Origin: Felis catus
Taxonomy: Eukaryota
Length of the DNA: 64,000 nucleotides
Assembly: GCF_018350175.1 (NCBI RefSeq)
Contig: NC_058368.1
Coordinates: forward strand, 82,772,001 to 82,836,000
Direction: 5' to 3'
Shown here: in pieces, positions 32,444 through 64,000 of the stretch
Layout of the letters: each line of letters starts with the position of its first letter
Numbering within the stretch: position 1 is the first letter of the stretch
Translations under genes and position numbers: made by a program
The notes under the pieces: generated by a model
Database searches by the model: none
What the model saw: the letters and a program-made list of their open reading frames with translations, nothing else
Told to the model about the DNA's origin: nothing

Positions 32444-35400
32444 ATGAGAATGAGAGAATGAGAGAATGAGAGAATGAGAATCTGGAGCAGGCTCCATGCT
32501 CAACAGAGCCCAAGGTGGGGCTTGATTCCACAACTCTGGAATCATGACCTGAGCCAAAATCAAGAGTCAGATGCTCACTGACTGAGCCACTCAGGTGCCC
32601 CAATACCATACTGTTTTGATTACTGTAGGTTTGTAATAAGCTTTGAAATCAGAAAGTGTGTCAACTCCTATTTAATAACTATCTATGTCCCAGGCATTGT
32701 TGATGGAGCAGTGAATGAGACATTGTTCCTCTCTGTCCAAAGCCCTGCTCTCCTCCTGGTTCTTGACTTTCTCCTGGATAGTTAGGGTTAGCATCAAAAT
32801 ATCTTTCAGATAATAAGAGTTGCAATATCATAGTCACGTGACCATTCCTGACGAGGCTGAAGGTGATTACTCAGTGAATTTAGTACCAACATGAAAGTGT
32901 TCCATCTGTTGATTAAGTGTATAGCAGGTTATCTTGGTGAACATTTCTTGGTATGTTCCCCCCCCCCCCCCCCCCCGCACATAATGACCAAGTCAGTTTC
33001 TCATGGCTTTCATTGTAAACATTCCTGTTTGAAGCAAACCCTGTCTGATTATTGTGCACACCCTTCGAAGCCCCTCTTTTAGACAAGTGTCTCTTGTAAG
33101 CAGAGTAATTCCCTTGAACTCACATAACAGATTGATAATGGAATTAACCTTTTAAAATCAGAAGAAATTTAAATGTGACTAAGAAATGTATTTAAAGGTA
33201 CTCCACGATAAACTCTTCAGTGGGAAAGAGAGGGTTTATTAACATTGAGTTAATGTAAAATTCACCATTTGATGAATTTTGAATGCATTCAGTTTTGTAA
33301 CCACTACTAACACATGAAAAATCATTTTATTTGATAAATAAATGCTCGTCCTTTGTTCATGTCGGGAGTTTGACATGCTAAGGTTGTGGTTGCTCGAAAT
33401 ATAGTTAAAACAGTTAGCATTGTCATTGTTATACGCGGTCTTTAAGAAAGCAAACGTTATTTATTAAAATGAATGTAGTGGAATTTCAGAATGGCTTTTG
33501 CAATTTGTTTCTAATACAGGCCTAGAATATCCTGCAGTGGTAGAGTTTGCCCCATTCCAGAAGATAGCCAAAAAGAAGCTAAAGAAAAAAGATGCCAAAA
33601 CCGGAAGCATTGAAGATGGTGAGTCCTTTTACAAAGGCTGAATTAGGAAACTGCCAAATCAAATACACTGATCAGATATAATTCGTCTACCAGATATGGG
33701 GAGGAGCATGTTTATTTTCCATTTTTCTTTTTAAATTTACAGATCCGGAATACAAGAAGTTTTTGGAAACTTACTGTGTGGAGGAAGAGAAAACGAATGC
33801 CAATCCTGAAACTCTTCTGGGAGACATGGAGGCAAAGACAAGAGAGCTTATTGGTCTGTTTGCTCATTTCTTCTCTTTGTTGAGACGTGTACTTACAAAG
33901 CTTGTATTTCTTTTTCATGAGTATTTAAAAATACACGCTCATGACAGGCTTGGCAGGAATGTAGAATGTTTTCCAGTTGTAACAAAAGGATGGCAACCCG
34001 TGAAAATATTTCTGCGTGTCTGTTGATGGAGAGCACCAGAACTTCCAGTCATAGGCGTTTTGTTGACAGTTATGATGCTTCCAGACGAGCAGTAAAGAAG
34101 ACCGTGGAGTGCTCTGTGCCTGCTACATCAGGGAAGGAGTGCTGTGTCTCAAGATTGAAATCAGTCATCTTTCTCAAGAGCAGTCCTAGAGATGAGATGC
34201 TTTGCCCAAGTGTGAGGCCATGTTGTTACTGTTCAGAAAATACCAAGCACTCTGAGAGAGCAAGCAGACAAGTGGATAAACCCAGCCGGAGCACAGAGTC
34301 TGCTTTGAATCAGGCTTCAGCCCTTTTTTGCAAGCAGTATATTTTAGAAATGGCTATCTCCTGGTGGCAGGTTGTAAACTTACCTGGTGTCTCCCTTGCT
34401 GTCTGCTCCCACTCGCCCCTGCTCTCCTATCCCTCCCTGTGGCTGTGTCCCACTTGCCCATCAAGATGTCTAGAACGGGATGATTGCCCTGTTAATAATT
34501 TACATTTTTATTTACCCATCTCTCCCCACCCTTCCCCCCCAGTAGAACCGTATTTTCATATTGGTGGTCCCAGTAGTACATGGTTAGACAAGGTTAGGTA
34601 TTCAGTAAATGTTTGTTGAGGTAAGTAGTAAGAGAGGTTAACATTTGAAATGGTCATTAGTCAAGTAATGAAGGTTTATGTTTTGTAACAGCTGATTTAA
34701 TGTGTGGCTCAAAAGATTTTTAATCACTAAAGCAAATATTTGTAAAGATGTGCTTAGGGTACATTTGCTCATTTTTGGTTAGCACATGTTGACTGGGAGT
34801 AGGGAGTGAGCATGGCCACGGCCATCACGTAGCTGCCCTGCTCATGGGCAAGACTGCAGTAAACACCCGAAAAATAACCAGGCTTCAAGCCAGGGCATCT
34901 TCATGGGGCAGTGCCACAATGTGGTGAAATAATCCTGAGTGGGAAAGGCCCTCTGAGTCCACATTTGAGCTGAGAGCAGCCATGCTAAGAGGCGGGAGAA
35001 GAGGGGACTAGAGATGAGAGCTGGGAGCTGAGCTGCGGGCCCATAGGAGTGGGATACGTGCCTGTGTGCTTGGTACACAGGTGGGCCTCAGGCGGAGTGG
35101 CTGGAGAGGCAGGTGAGTGAGAAGTTCGGAGTTTATTGGAGAGACAGCTGGAGACCATTGAGGGAGTGGCGTGGCTTGATTAGTTCTCCCTGTCGCTCCA
35201 TACATGATGGATTGTGGATGCCCTGAGGAGACATTGGGCTTCCAGTGGGGAGGCTTTGCTCCAGTCCAGGGAGGGCTGCTTGTGCTAGCCAGCAGAGTCC
35301 ACATAAGCTCTGGCGGATTGGGTGTGGGAAGAAAGGAAACAGAAAGAATCCAGGCCCCCAGGAGTTTTACCCAAACAGATCAGTGGATGGGAGCACCATC

Positions 35401-40300: not shown

Positions 40301-41622
40301 TAATTTCACTTTTAATTTTAAGTAAGGCTTAAAGTATTTGGAATATAGCATTCATTTTACTTTTACATTTTAAATTATGGAATTAGGAGCGCCTGGGTGT
40401 CTCAGTCGGTTGAGCATCCGACTTTGGCACAGGTCATGATATCACAGTTCGTGAGTCTGAGCCCTGCCTCGGGCTCTGTGCTAATAGCTCGGAGCCTGGA
40501 GCCTGCTTCGGATTCTGTATCTCCCTCTCTATCTGCCCCTCCTCCGCTCACACTCTCTCTCTCTCTCTTTCTCTCTCAAAAATAAATAAGCATCAACAAA
40601 AAAATTTACAAAAAAAATAAATTATGGAATTAGAGTCCGAAATAAGTCAAAGAAATAAAAAACAGAATTATACCACTGAAAGTAAACATATGTTCCTTCC
40701 TGTAGAAAAAAATAAGTCAAAACATAAAGAAAGCAAGAGAAAGGGTTATTCTTGTTCAAATCTGGTAAAACAAAATCTTGGTGGCAGGTTAGACCACAAT
40801 GGCATAGGTAATCAACAGCCTGTGTCCTTAGGGGAGTGTCTGGTGTCTAGACCTGATTACACACAGCCATGCCCAAGGTTTGCCTTTAATGAGCATCTGT
40901 GCTCATTTTCAGGATTTCTGACTTAAGAATCATTTGGAGAGTTAAAATTCTTTTCTAACCTGAAAAATAAAATCAGTGAAGAAATGCTAAAAGAGTTTAT
41001 TAATATCATAAAAATACAGATGCAGAGAGATATCCTCAGGCTATTTTTAACATAAAGGAAACTGTGATACAAGGAAAGCAACCCAGCTGTTTTTATTTTC
41101 CTCTGAGGACTCTAAAACTAGGTGATGAGCTTAAGCTGAAGTAGGAAGTTAGAGATACAATACAAAGTTACAAATACAATTCCTGAGTACACAAATTGTG
41201 GACTATAGATGACATTAGTTGTGTGATCTTTTCTACAAAGCTTATTAAAAACCCAGGTGGACTGCGTGGAAGCACGCAAGACCTGGCCTCTGTTCCTCCT
41301 CCCCCTCCCTCTTCCCTCCCCCGCCTCCCTCTTCCCCTCTCCTTCCTCCTCCTTCCATCTTCCTCCTTCCTCTCCCCTCCCTCCCTCTTCCCTCCCCCAC
41401 CTTCCTGAATCTCCTGCCTCTCTGTCTCCTCCTCCCTCTGGTTTCACCTTAGGCCTCTGCTTGCTTCCTTCTACTGGGAGTTTCCCCCAAGACTTACAGT
41501 TTCTCTTAAGTGTCTCGTTCTCATTATCTGGTCTCTATTCATGTCTAACCTCCACAGAGAGTCCCTCCATGACCCCCTTGAGAACCCGTTCCTGCTCTTA
41601 CTCTCACCCCACATCTCTGGGG

Positions 41623-47600: not shown

Positions 47601-48190
47601 CAGATATGCCCACCCAAGATGCCCTGTCCTTGGGCCCCCAGGTGGCCACGGAAGGAGTGTAGGAGGCTTCCTTGAGGGGCTGGAAGCTACCCTGAGCTGG
47701 GGTTTGGTTGTTCCTCCTCTCCGTCAGAGCAGAGCTACCTGGCTTCTGCTGTTCTGTCCTTCCCTGGCCTCACTGTGCTGATATCTGGAAGCAGTTCCGT
47801 AGTGTCTTACTCACGTTGCTCAACCATCATTGCGTTTCTCCACCTCTAAGACTTGAATCAGATGATGGGTTGGTGTTTCCTATGAAGGGGCAGTTCAGGA
47901 ATAACCCACATAGAAATCACTCATTACAGACATCAGTAATTATTTAGTTCATGGCCCTAAAAAGCCGCCTCTGAGGGGCCATGCCTTGCTTTGTCTCAGG
48001 CCACATGTTCACCCTGCCTGGTAATTTAGAGGGGCTGAAATGTGTAAGTCTTCACCTCTGCCTGGGAGGGCAGACGCCGTGGTTCTGCTGGTTCCAGGGA
48101 GATCTGGGTTTGCACAGTAACCTTTTCCCAGATACTAATTTTTACCTTTTTTGAAGTTATTTTAAATATTAACTGTCTTTCTGTTCATGG

Positions 48191-48231
<41 letters not shown>

Positions 48232-48548
48232 CTTCAAAGTGCCTGGTTTCTGAGATGAGATAGTGCTGTGAAAAAGGCAGATGTTTAGCTGATTTTTTTT
48301 AGGTAATTAGAGTTATCAGACCCTGGAAGTAGAGAAGTTGCTCCCTCCTGTGTTGCTGGCCTTTGGAAGGGTAACCCACTGCTCTGTCCTGGCAGGATCG
48401 GCCGGCCTTGCAGCTGTACCAGCCAAGAGTTCGCATCCGAGCACGAGAAGGTGGTAGGGGGACCTCTGTGGAGTGCCCTGGCAGGAACAAGGACGAGGCT
48501 GAAGATTCAGCACAGGGGGGTTCCCAGAAGAGTGAAGAGGCAGGGTGA
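27290..48548 (+). CDS. UPF3A: UPF3A, regulator of nonsense-mediated decay; complete 10-exon CDS of 485 aa
   Basis: Exons 27290-27496, 28502-28608, 30166-30272, 33520-33618, 33743-33853, 37820-37875, 37966-38124, 44022-44182, 46037-46334 and 48396-48548 join in frame with GT-AG sites. The N-terminus MRSEKEGAGG, the RRM-like domain, the NKDRPALQLY EJC-binding motif and the position next to CDC16 indicate UPF3A rather than UPF3B. Confidence 0.97.
28502..28608 (+). CDS. UPF3A: UPF3A exon 2 (107 bp), VVIRRLPPSLTKEQLEEQLHPLPAHDYFEFFTADF
   Basis: tctacag|GTGGTC ... TTCAG|gtgaga. Confidence 0.96.
28986..29199 (-). mobile_element. Young felid-type CanSINE in UPF3A intron 2
   Basis: Near-consensus; TSD CAGATCTT. 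Confidence 0.95.
30166..30272 (+). CDS. UPF3A: UPF3A exon 3 (107 bp), LYPHLYSRAYINFRNPDDILLFRDRFDGYIFIDSK
   Basis: tttcag|TCTTTAT ... AAAG|gttcga. Confidence 0.96.
32000..32024 (+). pseudogene. U6 snRNA 5' fragment (tailless retropseudogene)
   Basis: GTGCTTGCTTTGGCAGCACATATAC is U6 nt 1-25 with two CpG>TpG changes, flanked by 18-bp direct repeats GTATTCTGTTGATGTTTC (31981-31998 and 32026-32043). Confidence 0.88.
32342..32601 (-). mobile_element. CanSINE with (GA)n/(GAGAAT)n expansion
   Basis: Reverse-complement body. Confidence 0.88.
33520..33618 (+). CDS. UPF3A: UPF3A exon 4 (99 bp, symmetric phase), LEYPAVVEFAPFQKIAKKKLKKKDAKTGSIED
   Basis: aatacag|GCCTAG ... GATG|gtgagt; corresponds to the exon skipped in the known short UPF3A isoform. 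Confidence 0.96.
33743..33853 (+). CDS. UPF3A: UPF3A exon 5 (111 bp), PEYKKFLETYCVEEEKTNANPETLLGDMEAKTRELI
   Basis: tttacag|ATCCGG ... ATTG|gtctgt. Confidence 0.96.
37201..37415 (+). mobile_element. CanSINE
   Basis: TSD-like AATG.GAAGATACT. Confidence 0.9.
37820..37875 (+). CDS. UPF3A: UPF3A exon 6 (56 bp), RRTTPLLEYIRNRKLEKQ
   Basis: gttttag|CTAGAAG ... AAGCAG|gtaggt. Confidence 0.95.
37966..38124 (+). CDS. UPF3A: UPF3A exon 7 (159 bp), charged helical segment RIREEKREERRRRELEKK...EVRIK
   Basis: cttcag|AGGATT ... ATTAAG|gtaatc. Confidence 0.96.
39445..39653 (+). mobile_element. CanSINE with internal deletion of the CT tract, UPF3A intron 7
   Basis: TSD TAAAGGCAGTG. Confidence 0.93.
40386..40620 (+). 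mobile_element. CanSINE
   Basis: TSD TAAATTATGGAATTAG. Confidence 0.92.
41293..41440. repeat. Polypyrimidine/polypurine low-complexity (CCT/CCCT) tract
   Basis: About 150 bp, almost only C/T on the + strand. Confidence 0.9.
41624..41655. repeat. (TG)n microsatellite
   Basis: Read directly from the sequence. Confidence 0.95.
41850..43065 (+). mobile_element. MER21-like LTR hosting the minisatellite
   Basis: agctcctaaaacccttg..., gattagagggttggaac, gggctggagattgaattc, ccaatgatttaatc resemble MER21-family LTRs as recalled; boundaries approximate. Confidence 0.65.
42262..42795. repeat. Minisatellite of 12 units (39/45/47 bp) with a 217-bp higher-order period
   Basis: Core CCTGCACTGTGTCCTTTGTA(A/G)TAAT(C/T)CAGTGACCTAG; unit lengths 47,47,45,39,47,39,47,45,39,47,39,47. 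Confidence 0.97.
44022..44182 (+). CDS. UPF3A: UPF3A exon 8 (161 bp), LLKKPEKGEEPTTEKPKERGEEMD...LEEPRE
   Basis: ttcttag|CTTCTT ... GGAAAA|gtgagc. Confidence 0.94.
45301..45530 (+). mobile_element. Young felid-type CanSINE in UPF3A intron 8
   Basis: Near-consensus; TSD AAGCAAAGGA. Confidence 0.95.
46037..46334 (+). CDS. UPF3A: UPF3A exon 9 (298 bp), SQNESNEEQRELD...RWGKGGPPDRGKKGSQDSG...ERPGNK
   Basis: atcacag|GTCACAG ... AATAAG|gttctt; lies within ORF 46026-46550. Confidence 0.93.
48396..48548 (+). CDS. UPF3A: UPF3A exon 10 (coding part), DRPALQLYQPRVRIR...KSEEAG*
   Basis: cctggcag|GATCGG; TGA at 48546-48548. Confidence 0.94.
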   Translation, partial: DRPALQLYQPRVRIRAREGGRGTSVECPGRNKDEAEDSAQGGSQKSEEAG

Positions 48549-49322
48549 GTCAGCGCACATGTTTGGGACCTCCCATTCAGCATTCTGTGGGTTAGAGAGG
48601 GCATTCTGGAAATGTACAAATCAGCCTTGAATCTAACCTGCAAAGTGAATTTACTCCTTATAAAGAAATCAGAAACTAGAAATATAAATGTGGCATAGAA
48701 ACATCTAGAAACCATTCTTAAGAAAGAAGCAATCTTTTAAAAAATTGAAAAGTTGTCATAGATTTTATTATTTTTAGTATAAAGTAGTATGTATCATTTA
48801 GCCAAAATAGCCTGTACTTTGAGTTCTACACATTTGTAAGTGATCTGTTGGGATTCATATCACGTAGTATGTGAGCTATTGTTCGGGGGAAGGGAGGGCT
48901 CTCATTCCATTGTAACTCGGTGATACAGACACCTGTGCCATCTGTCCTGAAGATTCCCCGAAGTCTGTATTGTGTTATAGCCCCTGTGATAGAACTTAAC
49001 ACTGTATAAAATCTGACAGCTTTAAGAATTGCCCTTTTAGCAATGTGGCCACTGACTTTTTTCACAGTCTTTTGATGGATGTGCTCATGGTTTATAACCA
49101 CCGTGATTTAAGGGTTGCTGAGACAACGTAAGGGCATTATTTTGGGACAAGGATAACTTAGTTATGGCATCTAGGGTTTTTCTTTTCGCAGTCTGAGGCA
49201 GTTTTATTTTGAGATGACTCATTGGAACTTTCTGCAGTTATGTGTTCTACAGTATTTTTTAATGTTAGTGAAATTTTTAAACATTAATGTATTTTTGGCA
49301 CTATGCTTTGAACCACTTACTA

Positions 49323-49393
49323 AATAAAAATTTTAGTTGCTATGAATTTGAAGTCCAGTTGTACTTTTCCTACATCAAATTTTACATAATAAA
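49323..49393 (+). terminator. UPF3A candidate polyadenylation signals (AATAAA at 49323-49328 and 49388-49393)
   Basis: End of an AT-rich, repeat-free stretch about 0.8 kb after the stop. Confidence 0.6.
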
Positions 49394-49419
49394 ACATTGC
49401 TTTTTAAAATGTAGCTTTA

Positions 49420-49643
49420 GGGGCGCCTGGGTGGCTCAGTCGGTTAAGCATCTGACTTCAGCTCAGGTCATGATCTCACACTTCGTGGGTTTGAGTCCCA
49501 CGTCGGGCTGTGTGCCGACAGCTCAGAGCCTGGAGCCTGTTTCACATTCTGTGTCTCCTTCTCTCTCTGCCCCTCCCCACTCTCGTGCTCTCTCTCAAAA
49601 AATGAATAAACATTTAAAAAAAATTTTTTTTAAATAAATAAAT
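49420..49643 (+). mobile_element. CanSINE at the predicted UPF3A 3' end
   Basis: TSD AAAATGTAGCTTTAG at 49406-49420 and 49644-49658. Confidence 0.94.
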
Positions 49644-49869
49644 AAAATGTAGCTTTAGTTATCTGAGAATTTTGCTGGTTGTATCTATTCCTTTCTAGAT
49701 ATGAAACATTTATCAAAAAACTTAGAATACTCATTTATCATTAAAAATGTCTGTCAGACATATAGTCTATTCCATGGCATTGCTATGCCCTTGCTCTTGA
49801 CTCTGGAGCTCCAAGAATTTGGCGGGGGGAAGGGGCAAAGGACTTGCTGTGATTTAGTGAGGTCTATGT

Positions 49870-50082
49870 GACCTGGTGGGGTCAGCCCTGATGGAAAAAG
49901 GGTAGGTGGGTAGTAACTATTTAGATGTTGCAGGCTCTCTGGTCTCTGTTACAACTTGCAAACTCTGCCATTACGCAATACATAACAAATGGGCAGGGCT
50001 GTGTTCCAATAAGATTTTATTTATAAAGATACATAGCAGGCCATATTTGGCCTGTGGATCGTACTTTGCTGACTCCTACTTA
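49870..50082. mobile_element. MER58-like hAT-Charlie MITE
   Basis: ggctgtgttccaataagattttatttat...ggccatatttggcctgtggatcgtactttgctgactcct. Confidence 0.7.
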
Positions 50083-50189
50083 GACTTTGGATCACACTGG
50101 ATTTCCTGATCAGTGAGACACTGTGTCCTCACTGCTCACTTGGGCTTTGATCTGTAAACATAAGTACAGCTCAAAATAGAATAAGAATA

Positions 50190-51106
50190 AAGCCTTGAAC
50201 ACAAGACCTGAAACCATCAAATTTCTAGAAGGAAACACAGAGGGTTAGCTCCTTGATACCAGTCTTGGTGATAATTTTTTATATTTTGACACCAAAAGCA
50301 AAGGCAACAAAAGTAAAAATAAACAATGGAACCACATTGAACTGAAAAACTTCTTCACAGGAAAGGAACCTATCTATAAAATGAAGAGGCAGCCTATGGA
50401 GAAGAAGAAGATATCTTCAAACAACATACCTAATAAGGGGTTAATATCCAAAATATGGAAAGAATTCATAACAACTCAATAGCAAAAAAAACCAAATTAC
50501 CCAATTAAAAAAGAAAAAGGAGTGAAAGACCTGAATAGACATTTTTCCAAAGAAGACATCCAGATAGCCAACAGGTGCGTGAAAAGGTGCTCAGCATCAC
50601 TCATCACCAGGGAAATACAAATCAAAACCACAATGAGATACCACCTCACACCTGTCAGAGTGGGTAAAATAAAAAAGACAAGAGAGCAAGTCTTGGCAAG
50701 GATGTGAAGGAAAGGGAACCCTCATGCAGCGTTGGTCGGAATGCCAAATGTTAGAGCCACTATGGTTTGCCAGCGTGGAGGTTCCTCAAGAAATTAAAAA
50801 TAGAACTACCAAATGATCCATCAGTGCCACTGTGGGCATAGATCCAAAGGGAATTGGAAGCACTACCTTGAAGAGATATCTGTTCACATGGTTGTCACAG
50901 ATTATTCACAGTAGCCAAGGTGTGGAAATAGCCTTAGTGTCCACTATGGGTGAATGGATAAAAAAAAAATGAATATTATGCAGCCTTAAAAAAGGAAACC
51001 CTGCCATTTTCAACAACATGGATGAACTTGGAGAGCATTATACTAAGTGAAGTAAGCCAGACAGAAAAAGAAAAATACTGCCTGCTATCCCTTATATATG
51101 TACAGC

Positions 51107-51143
<37 letters not shown>

Positions 51144-51487
51144 AACTCATAGAAACAGAGTAAAATGGTGGCTGCCGGGGACTAGGGCATGAGGGGAATA
51201 GGGAGAGGTTAGTGAAGTTCTGTTATTCAGTTATAAGATTAATAGGTCAAGGGTCTAATGTATAACATAGTGACGATAGTTAATACTGTATTGTATAATT
51301 GGAACTTGCTAAGACAGAATTTTCTCACCAAAAAGAAGTAAATATGTGAGGTGCTATTTATTACTCAGTGTGAATCCTTTCATAATGTATGCATTTTACC
51401 AATCGGTATGTTGTATGCTTTAAATATATATTATAAATTTACTTGTCAATTATACCTCCATGCGGCTGGAAAATAAGTAAATAAAAA
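50190..51487 (+). mobile_element. L1 3' portion (ORF2 C-terminus, 3' UTR, A-rich tail)
   Basis: ORF 50522-50707 [13 protein letters not shown]...[17 protein letters not shown]. Confidence 0.92.
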
Positions 51488-51830
51488 GTAGCTACATCCT
51501 ATGAAAGATTCTTGAGATCTGTCCCCAGGGCTTCGCAGAAGTTACTTTGAGATTACTGATTTAAAACAATAATACATTTGTATAATGGACTACTTCGGTA
51601 TAAAACACTTCCATGTACACTCCCTAGTTTTGGCTTAGACTCATTTTTAAGATGGTTGGGCAGGACACGACACACATAATCTCCCTTTTACAAACTAAGA
51701 AACAGGTTTAGAGATGTCCAGCACTTGTTGCTGGCAAAGCCAAAAGCTGTTTTCATATTCGTAAAGTTTTTATTACTAATTACCCAGAAATAAGTTTTTG
51801 AGTTTATCACATGTCTAAGAAATGATAGAA

Positions 51831-52085
51831 GGGGCACCTGGGTGGCACAGTCGGTTAAGCATCCGACTTCAGCCAGGTCACGATCTCAAGGTCTGTGAGT
51901 TCGAGCCCCGCGTCAGGCTCTGGGCTGATGGCTCAGAGCCTGGAACCTGTTTCCGATTCTGTGTCTCCCTCTCTCTCTGCCCCTCCCCCGTTCATGCTCT
52001 GTCTCTCTCTGTCCCAAAAATAAACGTTGAAAAAAAATTTTTTTTTAAATAATAAAAAATAAAAAATAAATAAATAAAAAAAAAA
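51831..52085 (+). mobile_element. Young felid-type CanSINE
   Basis: TSD AAGAAATGATAGAA; long composite A tail. Confidence 0.95.
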
Positions 52086-52289
52086 AGAAATGATAGAAAT
52101 GTTAAAGAATATTCTTCACATGGGCATTGCCCCTGGGAGCCCGTATTGTGGGGAGGGCTCCCATGACCAAGGAGTGGGGTGCGGTTGGCCACCTGTTGGT
52201 TCACTTTCTAGTAATTCCTTTGCAAAACTTTCTTTATTCTGTTTCTCATTTTGGATTTGTTTTTGGTTTTATTCAGCTACCTAAGTATT

Positions 52290-52487
52290 GTATTTTTATT
52301 TTTATTTTTCAGAGAGAGCACGAGCAAGGGAGAAGGGCAGAGGGAGGGAGACAGTTAATCCCAAGCAGGCTCCATTCTAAGCACAGAGCCTGATGCAGGG
52401 CTCGATCCCACAACTCTGAGATCATGACCTGAGCGAAAATCAAGAGTTGGATGGTCAACCGACTGAGCACCGCCCCCCCAGGCGCCC
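52290..52487 (-). mobile_element. CanSINE
   Basis: TSD CAGCTACCTAA. Confidence 0.88.
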
Positions 52488-53330
52488 CACAGCTACCTAA
52501 TAATTTTAGTAATTATATTTAAACATGAACATAGCAAAGCAGAGCATTAACTATCAGTATTTTAATGGCTCTCAGTCTTGCTAGTAAATTAGAAACACCA
52601 ACTGACTGAAGTAATTCCTCAAATCTGACGTGAAATAGGTACCTTGAAGAATCTCACATACATCTTTGGAAATAGGTTTTCACTTGCTTGATAATAGTAT
52701 TACCAAGTAATTGTCTCCCACTTAATGAATCACATGACAGTGAAACACTTGGGGAGGGTGAGGTAGCTCACGGAGCAACAGGTTCTTTATTACAAGTCTT
52801 AGGAAGTCTAGTGGATCATGTGGCCCCAGGAACTAAGGAGAGGAGTGGTTATGGCTCAGCCGCAGTCGTGGCATGGAGAGGACCTCGGGTGGAGAAGGGC
52901 ATGAATTTCTTCACATTACGCCATGAGAAAGGATTTTTTATTTTCATCTGTATGAGTGAATTCTCATTTTTAAGTCTATTTTCTTAACTCTGATGAAAAG
53001 AGAGGTAATTATACTTTAGACAGATTTGTTTTCTGTTCTGTTCTTCCTGTCTTTAAAATTAAGAACATGTCAGAGATTAAAATGGAGAATTTAAATGGAT
53101 ATTTGATCTATTCAATCTGTGTTAATTACTACCAAAAAAAGAAAAAAAAAGAGTGAAAATAAGTTTATTTTCAGAACAGTGTTCAGAGTCAAGAGGGTGG
53201 TTTTTTTGTTTGTTTGTTTTTCCCCAAGCAAATTAGCCTGCTTAAATCCACCAGGTAATTTCTTCAACCCAGTCTCAGCTTTAGTAAGGTTTAATGATAG
53301 TCATTATATGAAAATTCAGTTTAAATCCTT

Positions 53331-53510
53331 TTAAAAGTTTGTCACTTCAGTCAAGTTTAGAAAAATGCTGTCTTCTCTGTGTGTTTCTGTTGGCCTGCAT
53401 TTTGGTGGAAAGCTTACAACTTCTTGTAAGTGTCTATCCTTCTTTGTGTCAAAAGCATGTTTGTCTTGTAACATGTTAAATTTCTCCCCAAGTTCTTCAC
53501 TGTTACACAT
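53331..53510 (-). pseudogene. FBXO36-like exon 4 equivalent: MCNSEELGEKFNMLQDK...VTNF*
   Basis: Acceptor tatttttttag|ATGTGT in phase 0. MCNSEELGEK matches the F-box end LCMSDKLWEQ with W>G; similarity fades after about 10 residues. Confidence 0.65.
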
Positions 53511-53762
53511 CTAAAAAAATAATTACATAAGTAACTTTGTATGACTAAAGGGATAAAAGGTAAGGCATCTTGGCCAATTTAAACACAAGCAGTCTACCCC
53601 ATAGAAGAATGGCATTTTTCAATGATAATAGCATTTTTAGTAGAATAAATTATTGTCATGATAGAAAAATCAAGGTGCCAAACTGAGAGCCGTGTGCCTA
53701 CATATAATTTTCCCAGTTATACATGCACGAAGTAGCCACTGCCTGCATCACTGGGACCATGC

Positions 53763-53961
53763 TTTTTTTTTTTTTAACGTTTATTTTTGAGAGCGTGAGT
53801 GGGGGAGGGGCAGAGAGAGAGAGGGAGACACAGAATCTGAAGCAGACTCCAGGCTCTGAGCTGTCAGCACAGAGCCTGACGCGGGGCTCGAACTCACGAA
53901 CCGCGAGATCGTGACCTGAGCCAAAGTTGTACGTGTAATTGACTAAGCCACCCAGGTGCCC
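53763..53961 (-). mobile_element. CanSINE
   Basis: TSD-like GGACCAT.CTTT. Confidence 0.9.
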
Positions 53962-54133
53962 AAGGACCATACTTTCCTGAACCAAAAAATGGAACAATCG
54001 ATTTGACAAAGGATTCTTGTGTCACTCGGGTGTGAGGGCCAATGTAGGAGATGCTGTTTGGGTACAAAACTGCTGGCGTTTCTTAGATGTCTTAACAGTG
54101 ATAGAAACCATGATATTCACATTCAAGCCTTAC

Positions 54134-54670
54134 TATGGACTAAACTTGATCTCCACAGGGTTCACATGTTGAAGTCTTAACTGCTTCCTCAGTGTGGCTA
54201 TATCTGGAGTAAAGAAGTAATCAGTGTTAAATGAGGTCATAAGTATGGGGGGCTCTGATCTGATAGGATTAGTGTCCTTGTAGGAGGAAACACCAAAAGG
54301 TGCCCACGTGTAAGTTAGGAATGCCTCACTAAGAACCAAAACAGCTAACACCTTGATCTTGAACTTCCAGCCTCTAGAACTGTGAGAAGTGTCTGTGGCT
54401 AAAGTGGCCCATCTGCAGTATTTTTTTTTTAATTTTAATGTTTATTCATTTTTGAGACAGAGACAGAGTGCAAGTGGGGGAGGGACAGAGAGAGAAGGAG
54501 ACACAGATTCTGAAGCAGGCTCCAGGCTCTGAGCTGTCAGCACAGAGCCCGACGTGGGGCTCAAACCCACAAACTGCCAGATCATGACCTGAGCCAAAGT
54601 TGGACGCTTAACCAACTGAGCTACCCAGGTGCCCCCCATCTATGGTATTTTGTTGTGGTGTCTGGAGCTA
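54134..54670 (+). mobile_element. MaLR (MLT1A/MST-like) LTR interrupted by a SINE
   Basis: ttaaatgaggtcataag, gattagtgtccttgta, cttgatcttgaacttccagcctctagaactgtgagaa. Confidence 0.8.
54421..54637 (-). mobile_element. CanSINE nested in the MaLR LTR
   Basis: Reverse-complement body. Confidence 0.9.
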
Positions 54671-55094
54671 TGAGAAAGGCCTGTCACTGGAAACCCAAGG
54701 GCTAAGAGTGTGCAGGGACATTAGGAAGGAAACCAGTGGTGGCTCCCCTCTCCTGGATCATTCCAACAAGATTTGGTCATTCCTGTGTTAGGAAGGAAAT
54801 TCCTCAGGCAAAATTGCCATATCAAAATATAAAATGGAAATATCCTCACACTCAGCATTTGAACTCCTAACACTGCACCCTACAGACAGACCTGCACATG
54901 TACAGACAGTAAGCATGCCAGCTGTCCCTATGCTCTGCCCACTGCTCCTCAGCAGCCATGGCAGAATACAGACATTGAAATGTCCACAGTGTGTCACAAA
55001 ATTACAAGTACGGGATGTGCTTTAAATAGTTCATAGATATACAGGATGTCTGTGCTAGAAAATGTCTGGAAAGATGTGTACCAACATGTAAGAA

Positions 55095-56275
55095 CACGGT
55101 CAATCAATCTGCAACAAAGGAAGCAAGAACACACAATGGGGACAGGATAGTCTCCTCAGTAAATGGTGCTGGGTCTGGACAGCTACGGGCAGAAGAATGA
55201 AGACGGATCACTTTTCTACACCACACACAAAAATAAACCCCAAATGGATTAAACACCTAACAGTGAGACCGGAAACTGTAAAACTCCTCAAAGAAAACAT
55301 AGGCCGTAATCTCATGGATTACTCAGCCTTAGCAACATATTTGTGGCTACCTCTCCTCAGGCAAGGGAAACAAAAGCAAAAAGAAACCATTGGGACTACA
55401 CCAAAAAGAAAATCTTTTGCACAGCAAAGGAAACCGCCAACAAAACAAAAAGGCAACCTACAGAATGGGAGAAGATATTTGTAAATGACATATTTGATAA
55501 GGGGTTAGTATCCAAAATATATAAAGATTATACAAATCATTACCGGAAAAAAAATAATCTGATTAATAAACAGGCAGAAGACCTGAATAGATATTTTCCC
55601 AAAGACACAGATGGTCAAAAGACACATGAAAAGGTGCACAACATCACTAATCATCAGGGAACTGCAAATTAAAACCACGATGAGAGATCACCTCATCCTG
55701 TTCAGAATGGCCAAGATCAAAGACTCAAGAGATAACAAGCGTGGGTAAGGATGTGGAGAAAAGGGAACGTCGTACACTGCTGGTGGCAGTGTATTGTGGA
55801 AAATGGTACAGAATTTCCTAAAAAAAAATGAAAAATGGGAATACCATATGATTCAGTAATTCCACTGCTGGGTATTTTCCCAAAGAAAATGAAAACACTA
55901 ATTTGGAAAGGTATATGCACCACTATGTTTATTGCAGGATTATTTACAATAGCCGAGATATGGAAGCAGCCCAGGTGTTCATGGATAGATGAATAAAGAT
56001 GTGGTTTGTATATACCATGGAATATTACTCTAGTCACAAAAAAAGTATGAGATCTTGTCATTTGTGACAACCCGGTTGGACATAGAGGGTGTTATTGTAA
56101 GTGAAATAAGACGGAAAAAAAGTAATACAAATGATTTCACTCCTATGTGGAATCTAAAAACACAAACAGAAACAGACTCATAAATACAGAGAACAAACTG
56201 GTGGTCGCCGGGGGCCGGGGGCGGGGGGTGGGGAGGATGGGCAAAATGGGTGAAGGGAGTTAGTAGGTACAAACA
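55095..56275 (+). mobile_element. Carnivore L1 3' portion inside an intron of the FBXO36-like relic
   Basis: ORFs 55197-55484 and 55343-55672 (TKINPKWIK, KRQPTEWEKIF). Confidence 0.92.
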
Positions 56276-56923
56276 CAAAACGTACTCAAGCTTTTAGGAA
56301 AAATACAGGAACTATTCCACAATTTAATAGCAATTGGAGGTAGGATTAAGTGATTTTTAGTTGTTTTCTAACTTTTAAACAATGATTATATACAAAGATA
56401 GATTTTCATTGCTTCTCATTCCTAAGGAATTCAAAATTTATTTATTACCAAATATCTACAGATGCCTGAAACAATATGTGTAAAATTAGGAATTTGAAAA
56501 GTAATTCTTTCCCCAGGGATCTTTGTTAATCTGCTGCCAAGTTTCTCATTGAAGGACACTGGTGAAAACCACACTTAGGAATTTCCATGCAATTTCTTTT
56601 TCTGTTTTTAGTATTTGCTTAAGTTCAATTAGAAACTGTATTAGTACTGTTTTTAACATTCTCTTTAATATGTGTGTTTTAACACCATTTACCTTGAAAT
56701 GCAGCATGATGCATTTCCTTTTGTTAGAATAGTTTTGCCTACAGTGCTCATTGACCTTATATTTTACAAAAGATCACTTTATCTTTCTTTCTTGGTGCTA
56801 CTTTTTCCTCTTGAGCATAACTTAACCAGTTTCTTAGGCTGTAAGTAAAACATATTTTATCATTGCCAAAATCCAGTGCGTCATTACATGAAGTTAAGGT
56901 TTTCTAAATCATGCCCTTTCTCT

Positions 56924-57141
56924 GGGGCGCCTGGGTGGCGCAGTCGGTTAAGCGTCCGACTTCAGCCAGGTCACGATCTCGTGCTCCTTGAGTTCGAGCC
57001 CTGCGTCGGGCTCTGGGCTGATGGCTCAGAGCCTGGAGCCTGTTTCCGATTCTGTGTCTCCCTCTCTCTCTGCCCCTCCCCCGTTCATGCTCTGTCTCTC
57101 TCTGTCCCAAAAATAAATAAATGTTGAAAAAAAAATTTTTT
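56924..57141 (+). mobile_element. Young felid-type CanSINE with 19-bp TSD TAAATCATGCCCTTTCTCT
   Basis: TSD at 56905-56923 and 57142-57160. Confidence 0.95.
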
Positions 57142-57252
57142 TAAATCATGCCCTTTCTCTTTGAAATTCTGTGTAATATTTACCAGTACAAAATACATGC
57201 ACACACACGTGTGTGTGTGTGTGTGTGTGTGTATAATATTTTAAGGCCTTAC

Positions 57253-57428
57253 CTTTTGGAATTTTTTGCAGGTTTTTGAGAGCTGCCCAATGTCATCCAA
57301 ATCAAGAAAAGAGAAGATCTGTAGCATTATGTTGTCAGGCATGTGAATTAACAAATCAAATTTTCCATGACGCAGATTCAAAGAATAATCCAATGATACT
57401 TCTTTCCCAAACACATTGTGCATCTGCC
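57253..57428 (-). pseudogene. FBXO36-like exon 3 equivalent, open F-box exon: (G)QMHNVFGKEVSLDYSLNLRHGKFDLLIHMPDNIMLQIFSFLDLDDIGQLSKTCKKFQK
   Basis: Acceptor tgatgtttag|GGCAG; donor AAG|gtaagg. F-box pattern (MPDNIMLQIFSFLDLDDI..L...CK.F); lies within ORF 57241-57423. Confidence 0.9.
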
Positions 57429-60400
57429 CTAAACATCAGTGAGAGAGAGAGACAGAGACGGGTAGACACAGGCAGAGACAGACCAGGTTATAATAGGCCA
57501 ACTCAGTCCCACACACTCTCAAAAAACATCACTTGATTTGAGGAGCACCTGTGCTTCTTCACAGAGGGTATACCTATCTTTGTAACAAAGCCATATTCCT
57601 ACTGAAAAGATGGGCATCATTAAGCAATTCCAGTGTCCCTCAAGTGAAGTAACAGCATCTCACATTTATGATGCTCTTTACTTGTAGTCTGACAACAGTC
57701 CTTTGAAGAGGCAGTGTAACCACTCTGGGAGGTTCCTGTATTCCTTCGTCACATTCTCTCCAAGCGCCTCTGTGGGGCAGGCACTTTTATAGGTGTCGGG
57801 CATAAGCAGTGAACACAGCAGACTAGTCCCTGCATCCTCAGGGCTCATACCCTTCCTTAAACATACAAGGAGCTGAAACCCCTAAAAGGTAGGGTCTTCC
57901 TTGAATCTTCCAGGTCATAAGTGCCAGAACCAGATTGTCTAGATCAGAAACCCTTCATCCGAAATCCATGTTGAGTGTTGATATCACACTGTTGCTCTAG
58001 TGGCCATCCATGGCCCCTAAATTAGTCTCCCTGATATTATGAATAAGCAAGATCATACTCTTTCTTTCTATGGAATGGTCTATATTAAATGTTTGTCAGA
58101 TCCTCAAAGGAACAACTTTTAAAAAGCTGTAAGTGTCATACATTAGGCTCTTTGTAACCCAGCACTAAATTGTTGTCACCATTATCTTGCCATAAACATA
58201 AAATGGAGTGATTCAATATTCTAGGCAAAAACTGTCACCTTAAGTGACAGATAATGATATGTATTTTCTCTCCATTGCCAAGTAGCCATGTGATTCCTGT
58301 CGCCTTCCTTCTTCCAAGCAGATCCCCCAGCAGCTTGCTTCCTTCTGACCAGGGCAGACCCCAGACGCGGCCAGTCTGCTCTGGGCCTGGGCCTGCTGGC
58401 TGTCACTGGTCAGGTGACGGGCACATGATGTCAGTGAGTGCAGGGAGGGAACAGGGCAGACCTAACTCTATCCTCCCGTATGTGGCCAAAGAGGCCCAAG
58501 GGTAGCCTTCACACAGAGCCAAAATGCAGAGGTGGGAAGACCCCGGGCTCCTGACCGCGGTGGTCAAACTGCCCACCTCCTGTGGGCTTCTGTTAGGTGA
58601 GGGGGGTGTCCCTTGTGTAAACAGTTTGAGTGACTATTTCTATTACTTGCACACAAATCTGACCCTGGACGAAAGGTTTTGTTTTGTTTTAATGTGTGAG
58701 AAAGCTTTCATTCACCCCAAGGAAATCCACTCTTTGTACAACAGTGTGATACCCCACCCCCAGCAGCTCCTAGAGGACTTGTCAGAAATGCACATTCTCA
58801 GGTGCTGCCTAAGAACTACTGATAATTTAGGTCTCAGCTCTTATCCTCAAGGTGGTTCTGAAGCCTTGAGAAACCCCAGCATACTGCCTATCAGACCCAG
58901 AGGCCCCAGCAGCACACAGCCATTACTTCCACTTACAAACGACTATGAAGAGAAACCCCAAAGGCTCGAGGTTCTAATGGACAACCAATTGATAGGTCGT
59001 AATGTGATAAAGCTGTGGTTCCTCTTGCAACTTTTGCAAATTAATCAAGAAATATTTAGAAAAATGTGAAGTCATCCAGGTTTTCCTAGAACCTAGCATT
59101 TCCACTTAATACACATTTCAGTAACCGTCTTGTGCTGCTTCTAAGATGTGAATTACAAGTTCTACCCTCTAGGAATAAGAGACATGACTGCATCTCCCCC
59201 TTCCACACCACAGACACAAACCCTCACCTGCCAAGGGCAGCTTTACAGCCTACACACTTTATTCCTTCAGTGACGACCCACTTGTCTGGGTGTGTATGCT
59301 GTGCCGGAGACAGATGCCACATGCTCATGTTACAAAGCATAGGACTTGTGCTGATAATGAGCTCTCTGTTTGCCAGGAAAATCCACACAAGTGGATGAAT
59401 AGACCACTACAGTTCACTGGCATAAGGACTGAAATAAAGTGTGGACAAGGAAATGTACCTTTTAATCAATCATCTTCTCCCCAAGTACACTGATCTATTT
59501 GGGGTCCCTGGCTCCTGGCAACAGGAAGCCAGAGCTTGACGTCATGATCCTGACTCAAGAGTGATGCAGAGGCAGGCACAATCAGGCCATCCAAGGCAGC
59601 AGCCTGTGGTGGTGGGGATAATGGCACCCAGTGGGAGGGCAGTGGTGCTTCCCCAGGGGCCCAGTACGTGCTCACTACACCGCACCCGGTCTGTTGGTTC
59701 TGAGCCTCAGCTCATTCTCCAGGCTTCAAGTTCATTCTCTGGGCTACTTGAGAGCCTTCAAATAATTTCCCTTCTCTGCTTAAGTCAACTAGGATTGGTT
59801 TCTGTTGCTTAAAACCAAGAACTCTAAAGGAAAACTGACAAACAGGGAGGGAGTTAGAGGCAAAAGTAACACAGGGAAAGCTGAAGGAAGAAGTTACACT
59901 GGCCTGAGCAGAAATACCATTAGTATCCAGCAAAAAGAATCTGGCAGCCCATACCCTGTGGTGGAAAGTGGCTAATCACCTGTGGTGACCTGGTATCAAC
60001 TATCTGTTGTGGATTTGTTCAGGTTTGCTCCATTGTGATCACCACGGAACAATGTGAAAGGCAAAAGCAATGCAAGATTGTAGTGTCGGGTGGTGATTTC
60101 TAACAGTCCTGAATTGCAATGTAAGCAGCAAACAAAATAACCTGAATTCTTAAAACATAAGCCCTGAGAGTTGCTATGCAAGGGGTAAAACAGGGTTGAA
60201 ATAGCCACATATGTGACAGTTGGTTCAGTAACACAGAAAGAGTGTCCTCTGAACCAGAATGGAGGTATTTAGGAGTCTTTGACAGGCTCACCAACACCCA
60301 GACCCACTGTTACTCCCATGGTGTCCCGTCCCCAAGGAAACAGATCTTATGTTTCTCCCCACACCACCACTGTTTTCAGACCGGAAGTAGCCAATAACAA

Positions 60401-60687
60401 AGTTGATACTGGAACAACTTGGCTTCCACACAAAAAGAACACAGCCCTTTAAGAATTCATGTCAGCCAAAATGAGGGGAACAAATGAAAGAATAGATTCT
60501 GAGTGCAGGAGTCTAGAGAAGAAAGAAAATGATACTAAGTTGGATTGAATTCATGGATAGTGTGTTGGTTTAAACGAAGGAGAAGTTCTAGGTGTTTGCT
60601 CGACTGGCTACTAGGGGCCTAAACTCAGTGGTGGCCAAGTGAAGTTGAGAGGCCAAAAATTCCCATCACATTTAAGGTGGACTCTGG

Positions 60688-61047
60688 AGTGGGCTGGAGG
60701 ATGGCCGCAAGAGATGTCCACATCCTAGTCTTTGGAGCCTGGGGAGAAAAAGGGTCTTTGTACACGTGATTAAATTCAGGATCTGAGAGGGGGAGGCAGG
60801 GAAAGATTTTACACCCAGGTATGCAGAGAAGGTGATGTGCAGATGCTGTTACGAGCCAAGGAAGCCCAGCCCCCACAAGTTGGAGGAGGCCAAGATCAGA
60901 CTGTCCCCCAGAGCCTCCAGTGGGAACAAGCCCTGCTTATACTGATGGTGGGTTCAGCCTCTAGAACTATAACAGAATAAATTTCTGTGCTTTTAAGCCA
61001 CTACACGTGTGGCCATTTGTCATGGCAGCCAGAGGCAACTAATACAG
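60688..61047 (+). mobile_element. MaLR (MLT1-like) LTR with flanking MLT-internal-like sequence (about 60440-61400)
   Basis: gatgtccacatcctagtc, agagcctccag, cagcctctagaact..aataaatttctgtgcttttaagccact..ggcaactaataca. Confidence 0.8.
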
Positions 61048-61984
61048 GTACCCTGGCTTAAATGGGAAAGGAAGACTCAGGAGTTTAGTGTCAAGCCAGG
61101 AAGCTGAACATAGCAGGCAACAGGGCCAGTGTAGTGATCAGAATGGCCCTGCCCCAGATAATTCTGGGGGTGACTGATTACCAAGTGCCTAGGTTTGAAA
61201 AGGATAAACTGCCCACTAGATTCCTGCTTGGTTTGCATAGTTAAAACCTATGTCAGATCTTGTGAATATAGGCCTGACTTGAGTAACAATCAGGTAGAGA
61301 CATGTCCCTTCAACCAATTTCTAGACTAGAATAATTCCACAGATCAGAGATCCTCCACCAGCCAGGAGGTTAGCTACACTCGAAGGACCTTGTGAGAACC
61401 TACACGTTTGTTATGAGACTTTTCTTTCTGTAGGCATTTACTGCAGATTGGCAAAGATCCACAAGCTTGACTCTGTTGGCAAGGCTGTGTCTCCGTTGGC
61501 AAGATTCAGGGGCCAGTATGCTGCAGGAACCCAGCTCACTGACATCTTGGGAGCAACTGTGGAGTTGACTGTCTCAAGTAGAGGACACAAGGGACCAGCA
61601 TGGGTGTCACCAGTTGGGGTCACTTTAGGGACGGCACTGCTGTGAACCTGAGTAATCTGAGATGATCTGTGCCTCGGTAGAATCCTTCCTGCCCCTTGCT
61701 GTGTCCAACACACACATGCTGCCTCAACAGTCACCTCTTTGTGTCCTTGTTTCCTGCTGAGGTGGCTGTCCCCTTAGCTACTGAGATGCCTCTCCCTTGT
61801 ACCCTCACTTGTTGGAGAGTACAGCAGCTTGAGCCCCATGCAGACCTTCTAATCCCACAAGGCTCCCAGGCTCCACCTGCACCTAAGGGTGTGAGCCACC
61901 TGCTATGGACCAGTCTCCCCAGTGCCCCAAGTACCCAGATTCCCCTGGGAAACTCACTCTTCATTTAAGAATCAATTCAGTGTT

Positions 61985-62226
61985 GGGGCACCAGGGTGGT
62001 TCAGTCGGTTAAGCGTCTGACTTCGGCTCAAGTCATGATCTTGCCATTCCCCAGTTCCAGATCTGTGTCGGGCTCTGTGTTGACAGCTTACCTGGAGCCT
62101 GTTTCAGATTCTGTATCTTCCTCTCTCTCTCCCTCTCTCTGTCTCTGTCTCTCTCTCTCTCTGCCCCTCCCCTGCTTGTGCACACACACACACTCTCTCA
62201 AAAATAAACATTAAAAAAAAAAAAAA
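61985..62226 (+). mobile_element. CanSINE
   Basis: TSD-like GAATCAA.TCAGTGT. Confidence 0.9.
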
Positions 62227-62720
62227 GGAATCAACTCAGTGTCCACTCATCCCCTCATAGCACTAGTTTTTCTGTTACCACTCCCCTCTGCCTTTGAACA
62301 CCACAGAAGCAAGCTGCTTTATTCATTTCATATTCCAGAGCCTAACACTGGTTCTGACACAGAGTAGGCACTTAAATGAGTGAACAAGTCAATTCACCCT
62401 TTGTTGGTTCCACTCTGGGACACTCTCAGGAAAGAAAAGCATCTGACCATGTGGCCCATGGAGGACCCCTATCAGCTCCTAGACAGGAGGTCCCATGGAT
62501 GCTCTGCAGCTCTCCTGGGGGCTGCTGCAAACCACAGTCAGCCTGTACAAGTTCAGCCAAGTGGGACACGCCCTGGCTTCCCTCATATCCATGAGCCAGG
62601 CCTCTAGTGCCAAGAACAAGGGCTTTCTTTAAAGAGGGAGGAAGGAGCAGCCATGATGCCCAAGGTGACTTGAAAATGCCACATGCACCCTGCGTCCCCT
62701 CCACCGCAGCCCGTACTTGC

Positions 62721-62828
62721 CCTGCTGCTGCTCGTTCAGCAGGAAATCTGTGGGGGGCTCCTCACCTCTCTTGGGAGGGTCATTTCTTATTCCAGGCAGA
62801 GAGAATCCATCCATGACTTCCAGGTAAC
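62721..62828 (-). pseudogene. FBXO36-like exon 2 equivalent, disabled: VTWKSWMDSLCLE*EMTLPREVR / frameshift / PPTDFLLNEQQQG
   Basis: Acceptor cttctttgggcag|GTT; donor CAGG|gcaagt. Aligns position for position with recalled FBXO36 VIFRWWKISLRSEYRSTKPGEAKETHEDFLENSHLQG. It is 108 bp where 109 is needed to keep frame. Confidence 0.72.
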
Positions 62829-63345
62829 CTGCCCAAAGAAGCAGACACACACATTCTGGCACAGGTGTTGCCCACCATGGGAGCCAGTCAGTGGTGGTCT
62901 GCTATAGCAGCCTGACGAAGACCTAAGCAGAGAAGGTACAATGTCCCTCTGTGAACTGACAACAGCAGCATATTGGCAACTGCTGAAGCTGGTATGGGTC
63001 CATGTTATTACTCTCTCTCCTGTGAATGTTTAAAATTTCCAGTAATAAAATGTTAAAAAGAAAATTCATCTCAGATGGGGATTTTTTTTCCAGTTGGTTC
63101 ATATGTTCACAGACGAATTGAAAGAATACCTTGTCCTCTTCCGTTTTTCATTTTTATGGGTCTAATTGCTGAGACTGTGTTGATGTATGAGGGAGCAGAG
63201 GGGTCTTGTTACAAAAATTCCACCTAATTCTTTAAATTTCTTTCAAGTTATACACCAAATGTTCCAGTTATCTATAATCACAAATTACTTCTGAGGGTTT
63301 ACCATCCGATAATCCTCTCAATCTTACTGAAAGCAAAGACCTGCC

Positions 63346-63788
63346 TTATTTATTTATTTATTTATTTAACTTTTTTAATGTTTGTTTTTGAGAGAGAGAG
63401 AGAGAGAGAGCATGAACAAGGGAGGGGCAGAGAGAGAGGGAGACACAGAATCTAAAGCAGGCTCCAGGCTCTGAGCTGTCAGCACAGAGCCCGATGCGGG
63501 GCTTGAACCCATGAACTGTGAGATCATGACCTGAGCCGAAGTGCTCAACTGACTGAGCCACCCAGGCACCCCAAAGACCTGACTTTTTAAAAAAAATTTT
63601 TTAACATTTATTTATTTTTGAGACAGAGAGCGACAGAGCATGAACAGGGGAGGGTCAGAGAGAGAGGGAGACAGAATCCGAAGCAGGCTCCAGCACAGAG
63701 CCTGATGCGGGGCTTGAACCCACGAACTGCGAGATCATGACCTGAGCCGAAGTCGGACGCCCAACCGACTGAGCCACCCAGGCGCCCC
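63346..63788 (-). mobile_element. Two tandem CanSINEs (about 63346-63572 and 63590-63788) sharing a triplicated target site
   Basis: AAAGACCTG(A/C)CTT at 63335, 63573 and 63789. Confidence 0.92.
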
Positions 63789-64000
63789 AAAGACCTGACT
63801 TTTAAAAGGATTTGTTATTCAATCAGTTGACTCATTAATTTTCTGTTCCTGGGAAGCAGGCACAGAAGAAGACTTTACCAGGACTTATCAAATAACTACT
63901 AATCACACCTGCTACCCTTTCATTCTTAGAGGTAAACAGTTTAATCTGATCTATTCAAGAAAACTTGGTGGGTGGAGTTCAAGGCAGTAATTTCAGTACA

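Follow-up and report, generated by a model that had tools for sequence, protein, structure and literature searches.

A probable relic of an FBXO36-like F-box gene, convergent on UPF3A in the genome of Felis catus

We analysed a 64,000-nucleotide (nt) stretch of the Felis catus genome (contig NC_058368.1, positions 82,772,001 to 82,836,000; hereafter the window), in which three collinear minus-strand segments lie convergent on the gene UPF3A. We consider it highly probable (roughly 85%) that these segments are exons 2–4 of FBXO36-like, an ancient paralogue of FBXO36, present here as a damaged copy that keeps its introns and likely gives no working protein, while the intact protein of other vertebrates is likely an adaptor of an SKP1–cullin–F-box (SCF) ubiquitin ligase. 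Exon 2 (62721–62828; ancestral codons 33–69) measures 108 nt against an ancestral 109 nt, runs from phase 0 to phase 1 and is bounded by an AG acceptor and a GC donor. Exon 3 (57253–57428; codons 70–126) is an open 176-nt exon running from phase 1 to phase 0, with AG and GT sites and an F-box, and the coding part of exon 4 (53357–53510; codons 127–180) starts in phase 0. An acceptor AG with its pyrimidine-rich tract lies 5' of each segment, and all splice sites present in the window are intact. The introns between them span 5292 nt (intron 2, 57429–62720, minus strand, GC-AG) and 3742 nt (intron 3, 53511–57252, minus strand, GT-AG), the latter carrying repeat insertions. A candidate poly(A) signal, the first AATAAA 3' of the stop (53164–53169, minus strand), is a hexamer of a common kind. 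An initial annotation, made from the sequence alone, had proposed the three collinear segments with their acceptors and compatible phases, and these coordinates, AG sites and phases were verified. Three details were corrected: the last segment does start at 53510 in phase 0, but the end it was given, 53331, is the stop of a frameshifted frame, the ancestral TAA lying at 53359–53357; the exon 2 donor is GC rather than GT; and in the four-exon gene the segments count as exons 2, 3 and 4.

The F-box already recognised in exon 3 scored above the curated Pfam cut-offs for both F-box (E = 2.2e-8; 34.1 bits against a cut-off of 20.5, compared with 42.3 bits for the sloth orthologue) and F-box-like (E = 6.2e-9). 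A family profile run in six frames over the whole window recovered only the three exons at an independent E-value (iE) below 0.01 (2.4e-23, 0.0031 and 0.0017), the next-best match having an iE of 0.16. As first reported, exon 1 is missing from the window: queries with eight family N-termini gave no minus-strand match above 62828, and their best matches (E 0.02–0.2) fell on a proline/serine-rich plus-strand stretch at 41296–41358. The GC donor of intron 2 lies within 62721–62716 on the minus strand. Out-of-frame Pteropus models that cross the exon 2 junction show Gln where the window reads CAA, so a GC donor is implied in Pteropus as well. At the exon 2/intron 2 junction the models from pig, Sarcophilus, turtles and Huso are faulty, and the GC donor may hinder annotation of the gene.

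Lesions were scored against the FBXO36-like proteins of sloth, elephant and armadillo by frameshift-aware alignment, in which 23–25 of 35 residues were identical in exon 2, 46–49 of 57 in exon 3 and 35–37 of 50 in exon 4. Exon 2 carries an in-frame TAA at 62789–62787 (codon 46) and a 1-nt deletion near 62753, and exon 3 one additional codon near 57396. Exon 4 has a 5-nt deletion near 53438, an in-frame TAA at 53416–53414 and, inside the terminal motif and shortly before the ancestral stop, a loss of two codons near 53374–53371. The two premature stops and two frameshifts that this amounts to bear out the initial suggestion that the gene is disabled here. With its introns kept, its frame broken and complete, conserved models of its orthologue present elsewhere, the relic is, by its sequence, probably a unitary-type (non-processed) pseudogene. 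The first stop lies upstream of the F-box, so that a normal transcript would give a 45-residue stub and be a target of nonsense-mediated decay.

An alternative is that a shortened product is still made. An ATG out of frame with the ancestral reading, in a favourable start context (G at both -3 and +4), lies at 62812–62814 on the minus strand; the 1-nt deletion brings it into frame with exon 3, and with the splice sites intact it reads 149 codons through exons 2–4, including the F-box core. The locus would then still make a 149-residue F-box protein lacking the N-terminal domain and the terminal motif, possibly a decoy for SKP1. Pig and Pteropus models begin at the equivalent ATG, and the F-box core shows a single change in 30 residues compared with 21 in the 110 residues outside it (Fisher p = 0.045). 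This low count becomes unremarkable, however, if any 30-residue stretch is allowed (P = 0.39); no block of the family is better conserved than this core, so its conservation may predate the death of the gene. Moreover, C87, R96 and W134, which flank the F-box and are invariant in 36/36 family members, are all altered in the window copy, and translation from the exon 1 ATG upstream would run into the stop at codon 46. We therefore regard a surviving F-box product as very improbable and keep to a copy that likely encodes no working protein.

The identity of the relic rests on both alignment and phylogeny. The exon 3 query retrieved 13 proteins at 69–84% identity, most of them named 'F-box only protein 36-like' (pig, warthog, bats, elephant, sloth, tenrec and bilby). 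This exon was identical to armadillo FBXO36-like at 49/58 positions and to cat FBXO36 at 29/58, the two paralogues being about 41% identical over their full length. In a 62-row tree built from alignment columns shared in the N-terminal part and the F-box, the window copy fell inside the placental FBXO36-like clade (support 99/98), itself within a tetrapod clade (94/94), whereas the FBXO36-like clade including fishes was supported at only 70/97. Without long branches (25 rows), the relic again grouped with the placental members (100/98) and the paralogue clade including sturgeon reached 96/95. Teleost fbxo36a/b, considered as possible members of FBXO36-like, grouped with canonical FBXO36 in both trees and were rejected. 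Despite the identity that the paralogues share, we treat it as practically out of the question that the relic represents the cat's genuine FBXO36 or a retroposed or recently duplicated copy of that gene. Constraining it with canonical mammalian FBXO36 was rejected by the approximately unbiased (AU) test (p-AU 4.6e-70, 25-row set), the exon 3 identities point the same way, and introns of several kilobases at ancestral junctions argue against a retrocopy. Canonical FBXO36 is present in the cat as well; sloth, Pteropus, Rousettus, pig and Pelobates each have separate annotations for the two genes; and the canonical post-F-box motif GW+xxFFTNKLQL is absent from exon 4 in the window. The gene trees, introns and AU test thus uphold the original reading of an old, intron-bearing FBXO36 paralogue.

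The automatic 'F-box only protein 36-like' models of NCBI and UniRef (for example XP_037663326.1 in sloth, G3U9P8 in elephant, XP_065277653.1 in Emys and XP_058886536.1 in sterlet) represent the same gene as the relic. With the placental models the relic shares 79–84% identity in exon 3, equal exon junctions and a remnant of the same terminal motif; unlike the automatic models, the window copy is broken and its exon 1 lies outside the window. Mouse and human FBXO36 have the N-terminal domain and the F-box in common with the paralogue and are colinear with it over 176 columns, but form a separate clade. The three FBXO36-like junctions appear to match the break points of canonical FBXO36 splice-variant models. 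FBXO36-like proteins of Xenopus laevis, Anolis, Thamnophis, Microcaecilia and Terrapene are entered as plain 'F-box only protein 36', so that database names do not keep the two paralogues apart. A catfish query retrieved canonical FBXO36 from cat, sloth, pig, Pteropus, Rousettus, Pelobates, fishes and sharks (among the best 120 of 164 matches).

The initial annotation had surmised that the gene might be intact in other vertebrates, and full-length database models outside Boreoeutheria agree with this. The sloth query gave 55 matches among 73 candidates, with full-length models of 174–193 residues. This included marsupials, turtles, squamates, alligator, birds, caecilians, salamanders and frogs; sturgeons and one salmonid were added by a profile search (best 150 of 729 matches) and name look-up. 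By motif tests covering the four exons, all four atlantogenatan models (sloth, armadillo, elephant and tenrec) and 4/5 marsupial models were complete; the fifth marsupial model fell short on a single pattern of the motif tests. A link between loss of the gene and testicular descent was rejected, as scrotal marsupials keep complete FBXO36-like models. By contrast, none of 29 boreoeutherian models was complete, these coming from suids (pig and warthog), pteropodids and one Hipposideros, and no carnivore FBXO36-like protein occurred among the 55 matches. The damage differed between lineages. The pig has a shifted tail, with all four exons present across different models and the ATG of exon 1 kept, and its exon 3 deviates at only 1/50 conserved sites. 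Pteropus exons 2–4 are intact, in models without exon 1; Rousettus combines a skipped exon 2 with a shifted tail, and the Hipposideros model is broken in exon 1.

No coding lesion is common to the window copy and the pig and Pteropus models, which retain Q46, H58, I151-G152 and L160, all broken in the window. Since pig and bats are without the window's lesions, decay was likely independent. Relative to the 116 sites on which sloth, armadillo and elephant agree, 19 are changed in the window copy. When neutral change was simulated in a simple way that ignored CpG effects, these changes together with two stops fitted 0.06–0.12 substitutions per site, and 0.15 was unlikely (P = 0.011). Set against expected branch lengths, this suggests that the loss in the cat lineage is old, yet later than its split from pigs and bats. 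Judged from sequence, repeated loss of FBXO36-like is thus likely in the mammalian clade to which carnivores, pigs and bats belong: selection would have been relaxed in Boreoeutheria, and the gene would then have decayed separately in the carnivore lineage, pigs and bats. The same pattern could stem from a single disabling event in the boreoeutherian or laurasiatherian ancestor, such as loss of a promoter, with lesions gathering later lineage by lineage. The absence of complete boreoeutherian models favours such an event, as does the lack of any full-length primate, rodent, carnivore, horse or ruminant match among the 55 from the sloth query, in groups where canonical FBXO36 is plentiful. The near-unchanged exon 3 and the retained exon 1 ATG of the pig point instead to long selection after the lineages split, the divergence of the window copy (below 0.15 substitutions per site) is less than the expected carnivore root-to-tip distance, and the lesions themselves are not shared. 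We consider a single ancestral loss improbable and repeated decay the likelier history.

The intact protein was considered from predicted models and family alignments. In both paralogues the models have four well-predicted N-terminal strands (residues 8–57) followed by helices and the F-box, with predicted template modelling (pTM) scores of 0.51 and 0.55 that leave the packing of the domains unsure. The N-terminal domain (residues 1–90) is common to both paralogues and conserved out to Trichoplax and corals, and has no Pfam family. Foldseek found no match to its fold at E <= 0.001, nor was there a usable Atlas match for residues 1–90. A PH/PTB-like or other beta-sheet fold was not assigned, the VIA-align matches being middling (best Z 5.6, root-mean-square deviation (rmsd) 3.5, 75 residues aligned). 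Residues 95–166 of canonical FBXO36 resemble the extended F-boxes of Fbs2 (Z 9.4, rmsd 2.2, 67 aligned), FBXO3 and FBXO31.

The paralogues differ at the C-terminus. Canonical FBXO36 has a folded helical extension with the GW+xxFFTNKLQL motif, found as far out as Trichoplax; the paralogue has given up this older tail for a poorly ordered basic one ending in a conserved motif; residues 148–180 have a predicted local distance difference test (pLDDT) score below 50 in the paralogue only. By patterns defined post hoc from the alignments themselves, the canonical motif occurred in 32/32 canonical and 0/36 FBXO36-like proteins, and the terminal R-x-x-[TSN]-x-[FLM]-F in 32/36 FBXO36-like and 0/32 canonical proteins. 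Three of 39 family-alignment rows (one canonical catfish protein and two turtle models with odd last exons) were dropped before these counts. The final ten positions of FBXO36-like are conserved like the N-terminus, unlike the 34 positions preceding them (0.74 vs 0.42). In teleost fbxo36a-type proteins the canonical tail after the GW motif is also eroded, a second case of divergence in the tail of a duplicate.

We take the terminal motif of FBXO36-like to resemble a protein kinase A site, and the basic R-x-x-T/S-x-F-F tail end would serve, under the control of a kinase, for docking or as a degron. The N-terminal domain, roughly 90 residues of beta-sheet plus helix, would bind a partner or substrate. 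Mouse FBXO36 binds SKP1 in an F-box-dependent manner and is testis-enriched, and the knockout is fertile with slightly reduced sperm velocity, according to the accessible text of PMC13432620. By analogy, the F-box of FBXO36-like (97–136) would bind SKP1, intact FBXO36-like is likely an SCF adaptor, and it would act in male germ cells.

Vertebrate copies formed a single clade against those of invertebrates (100/99), and the presence of the paralogue in sturgeon makes the duplication at least as old as bony vertebrates. A DNA-level duplication before the split of ray-finned and lobe-finned fishes, probably in one of the two vertebrate genome doublings, would account for the pair. We assume that FBXO36 lies near the IRS1/COL4A3-4 block and UPF3A near the IRS2/COL4A1-2 block. 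The available text of two sources places FBXO36 at 2q36.3, head-to-head with TRIP12 (PMC7697007), and describes these blocks as ancient paralogous regions (bioRxiv 10.1101/2023.10.18.563013). On this sequence evidence a whole-genome-duplication origin is likely. Were the paralogue instead a local or segmental duplicate dating from early bony fishes, this would fit the placement of sharks outside both bony-vertebrate groups in the 62-row tree (89/89) and the lack of a shark or lamprey member among the matches listed. Counter to such an origin stand the paralogous blocks, with the positions assumed above, and the best tree without long branches (the 25-row tree), in which sharks join canonical FBXO36 at 67/81. 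We think a local origin unlikely, though a serious contender, and prefer a genome doubling.

The fullest account would thus make FBXO36-like an ohnologue more than 400 million years old whose C-terminus was re-purposed into a phospho-regulated motif, which served an SCF pathway retained by almost every tetrapod group, marsupials, Afrotheria and Xenarthra among them, and which decayed independently in several boreoeutherian lineages. We put this forward tentatively, as a whole at clearly less than even odds. Several points weigh against the main explanation given at the outset, besides the lightly changed F-box core. All 29 boreoeutherian records are protein models, and they cover three lineages; primates, rodents, horses and dogs lack the gene in annotation only; and FBXO36-like of pig or Pteropus could still be functional. 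The canonical clade including sharks has only the 67/81 support given above, and no shark or lamprey FBXO36-like occurred among the best 120 of 164 catfish-query matches or the best 150 of 729 profile matches, 10 of the 150 representatives being named. The only hint of the gene's position in other species is indirect, a bat FBXO36-like model labelled as an isoform of CHAMP1, which presumably adjoins UPF3A.

The neighbouring genes were confirmed by structure matches. The last coding exon of CDC16/APC6 lies at 15045–15314 on the plus strand (PDB match, E = 5e-52) and an internal UPF3A exon at 33739–33840, also on the plus strand (PDB 7qg6, E = 4e-14); an open frame at about 48396–48548 ending in TGA is presumably the last UPF3A coding exon. 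With UPF3A on the plus strand and the relic on the minus strand, the two are convergent, and the CDC16–UPF3A neighbourhood is as first described. A LINE-1 endonuclease fragment lies within CDC16 at 533–1592 on the minus strand (Pfam Exo_endo_phos, E = 7e-9). The sole Rfam matches in 48000–64000, at 49425–49509 (plus) and 63699–63783 (minus), are of tRNA type without being tRNA genes; we take both to be the heads of tRNA-derived short interspersed elements, in keeping with a carnivore and probably felid genome.

We found no description of the FBXO36-like paralogue or of its loss in the literature searched, which mostly did not cover subscription journals. 'FBXO36-like' and its variants led to one cichlid paper, whose accessible text mentions fbxo36b once. 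F-box surveys of Euarchontoglires and of Xenopus name FBXO36 once each in the main text as available, without a paralogue. The gene is unstudied rather than unseen, automatic NCBI and Ensembl models existing in dozens of species. It resembles the 'elusive' genes and asymmetrically lost ohnologues described in the available parts of PMC5901865, PMC10208646 and, for sox15, PMC8244163, in being an old duplicate kept in some vertebrates and repeatedly lost in mammals. Unlike FBXO36-like, however, the genes screened in PMC10208646 were restricted, by its accessible text, to those kept in human, and the 19 searchable supplements to the gecko paper (PMC5901865) contain no FBXO36 entry.

A decayed ohnologue belongs to a familiar category, and SKP1 binding, as seen for mouse FBXO36, is the sole known function within this paralogue pair. 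The finding nevertheless adds an F-box adaptor apparently missing from catalogues built on human and mouse, with a sharp pattern of presence and absence: complete in Afrotheria, Xenarthra, marsupials and non-mammals, and damaged in every boreoeutherian model examined. This pattern is testable across mammalian genomes, and in frog, chicken and opossum. If the account holds, a ubiquitin pathway, probably of germ cells, would have been dropped by most placental mammals, in a loss invisible to gene-loss screens based on human or mouse.

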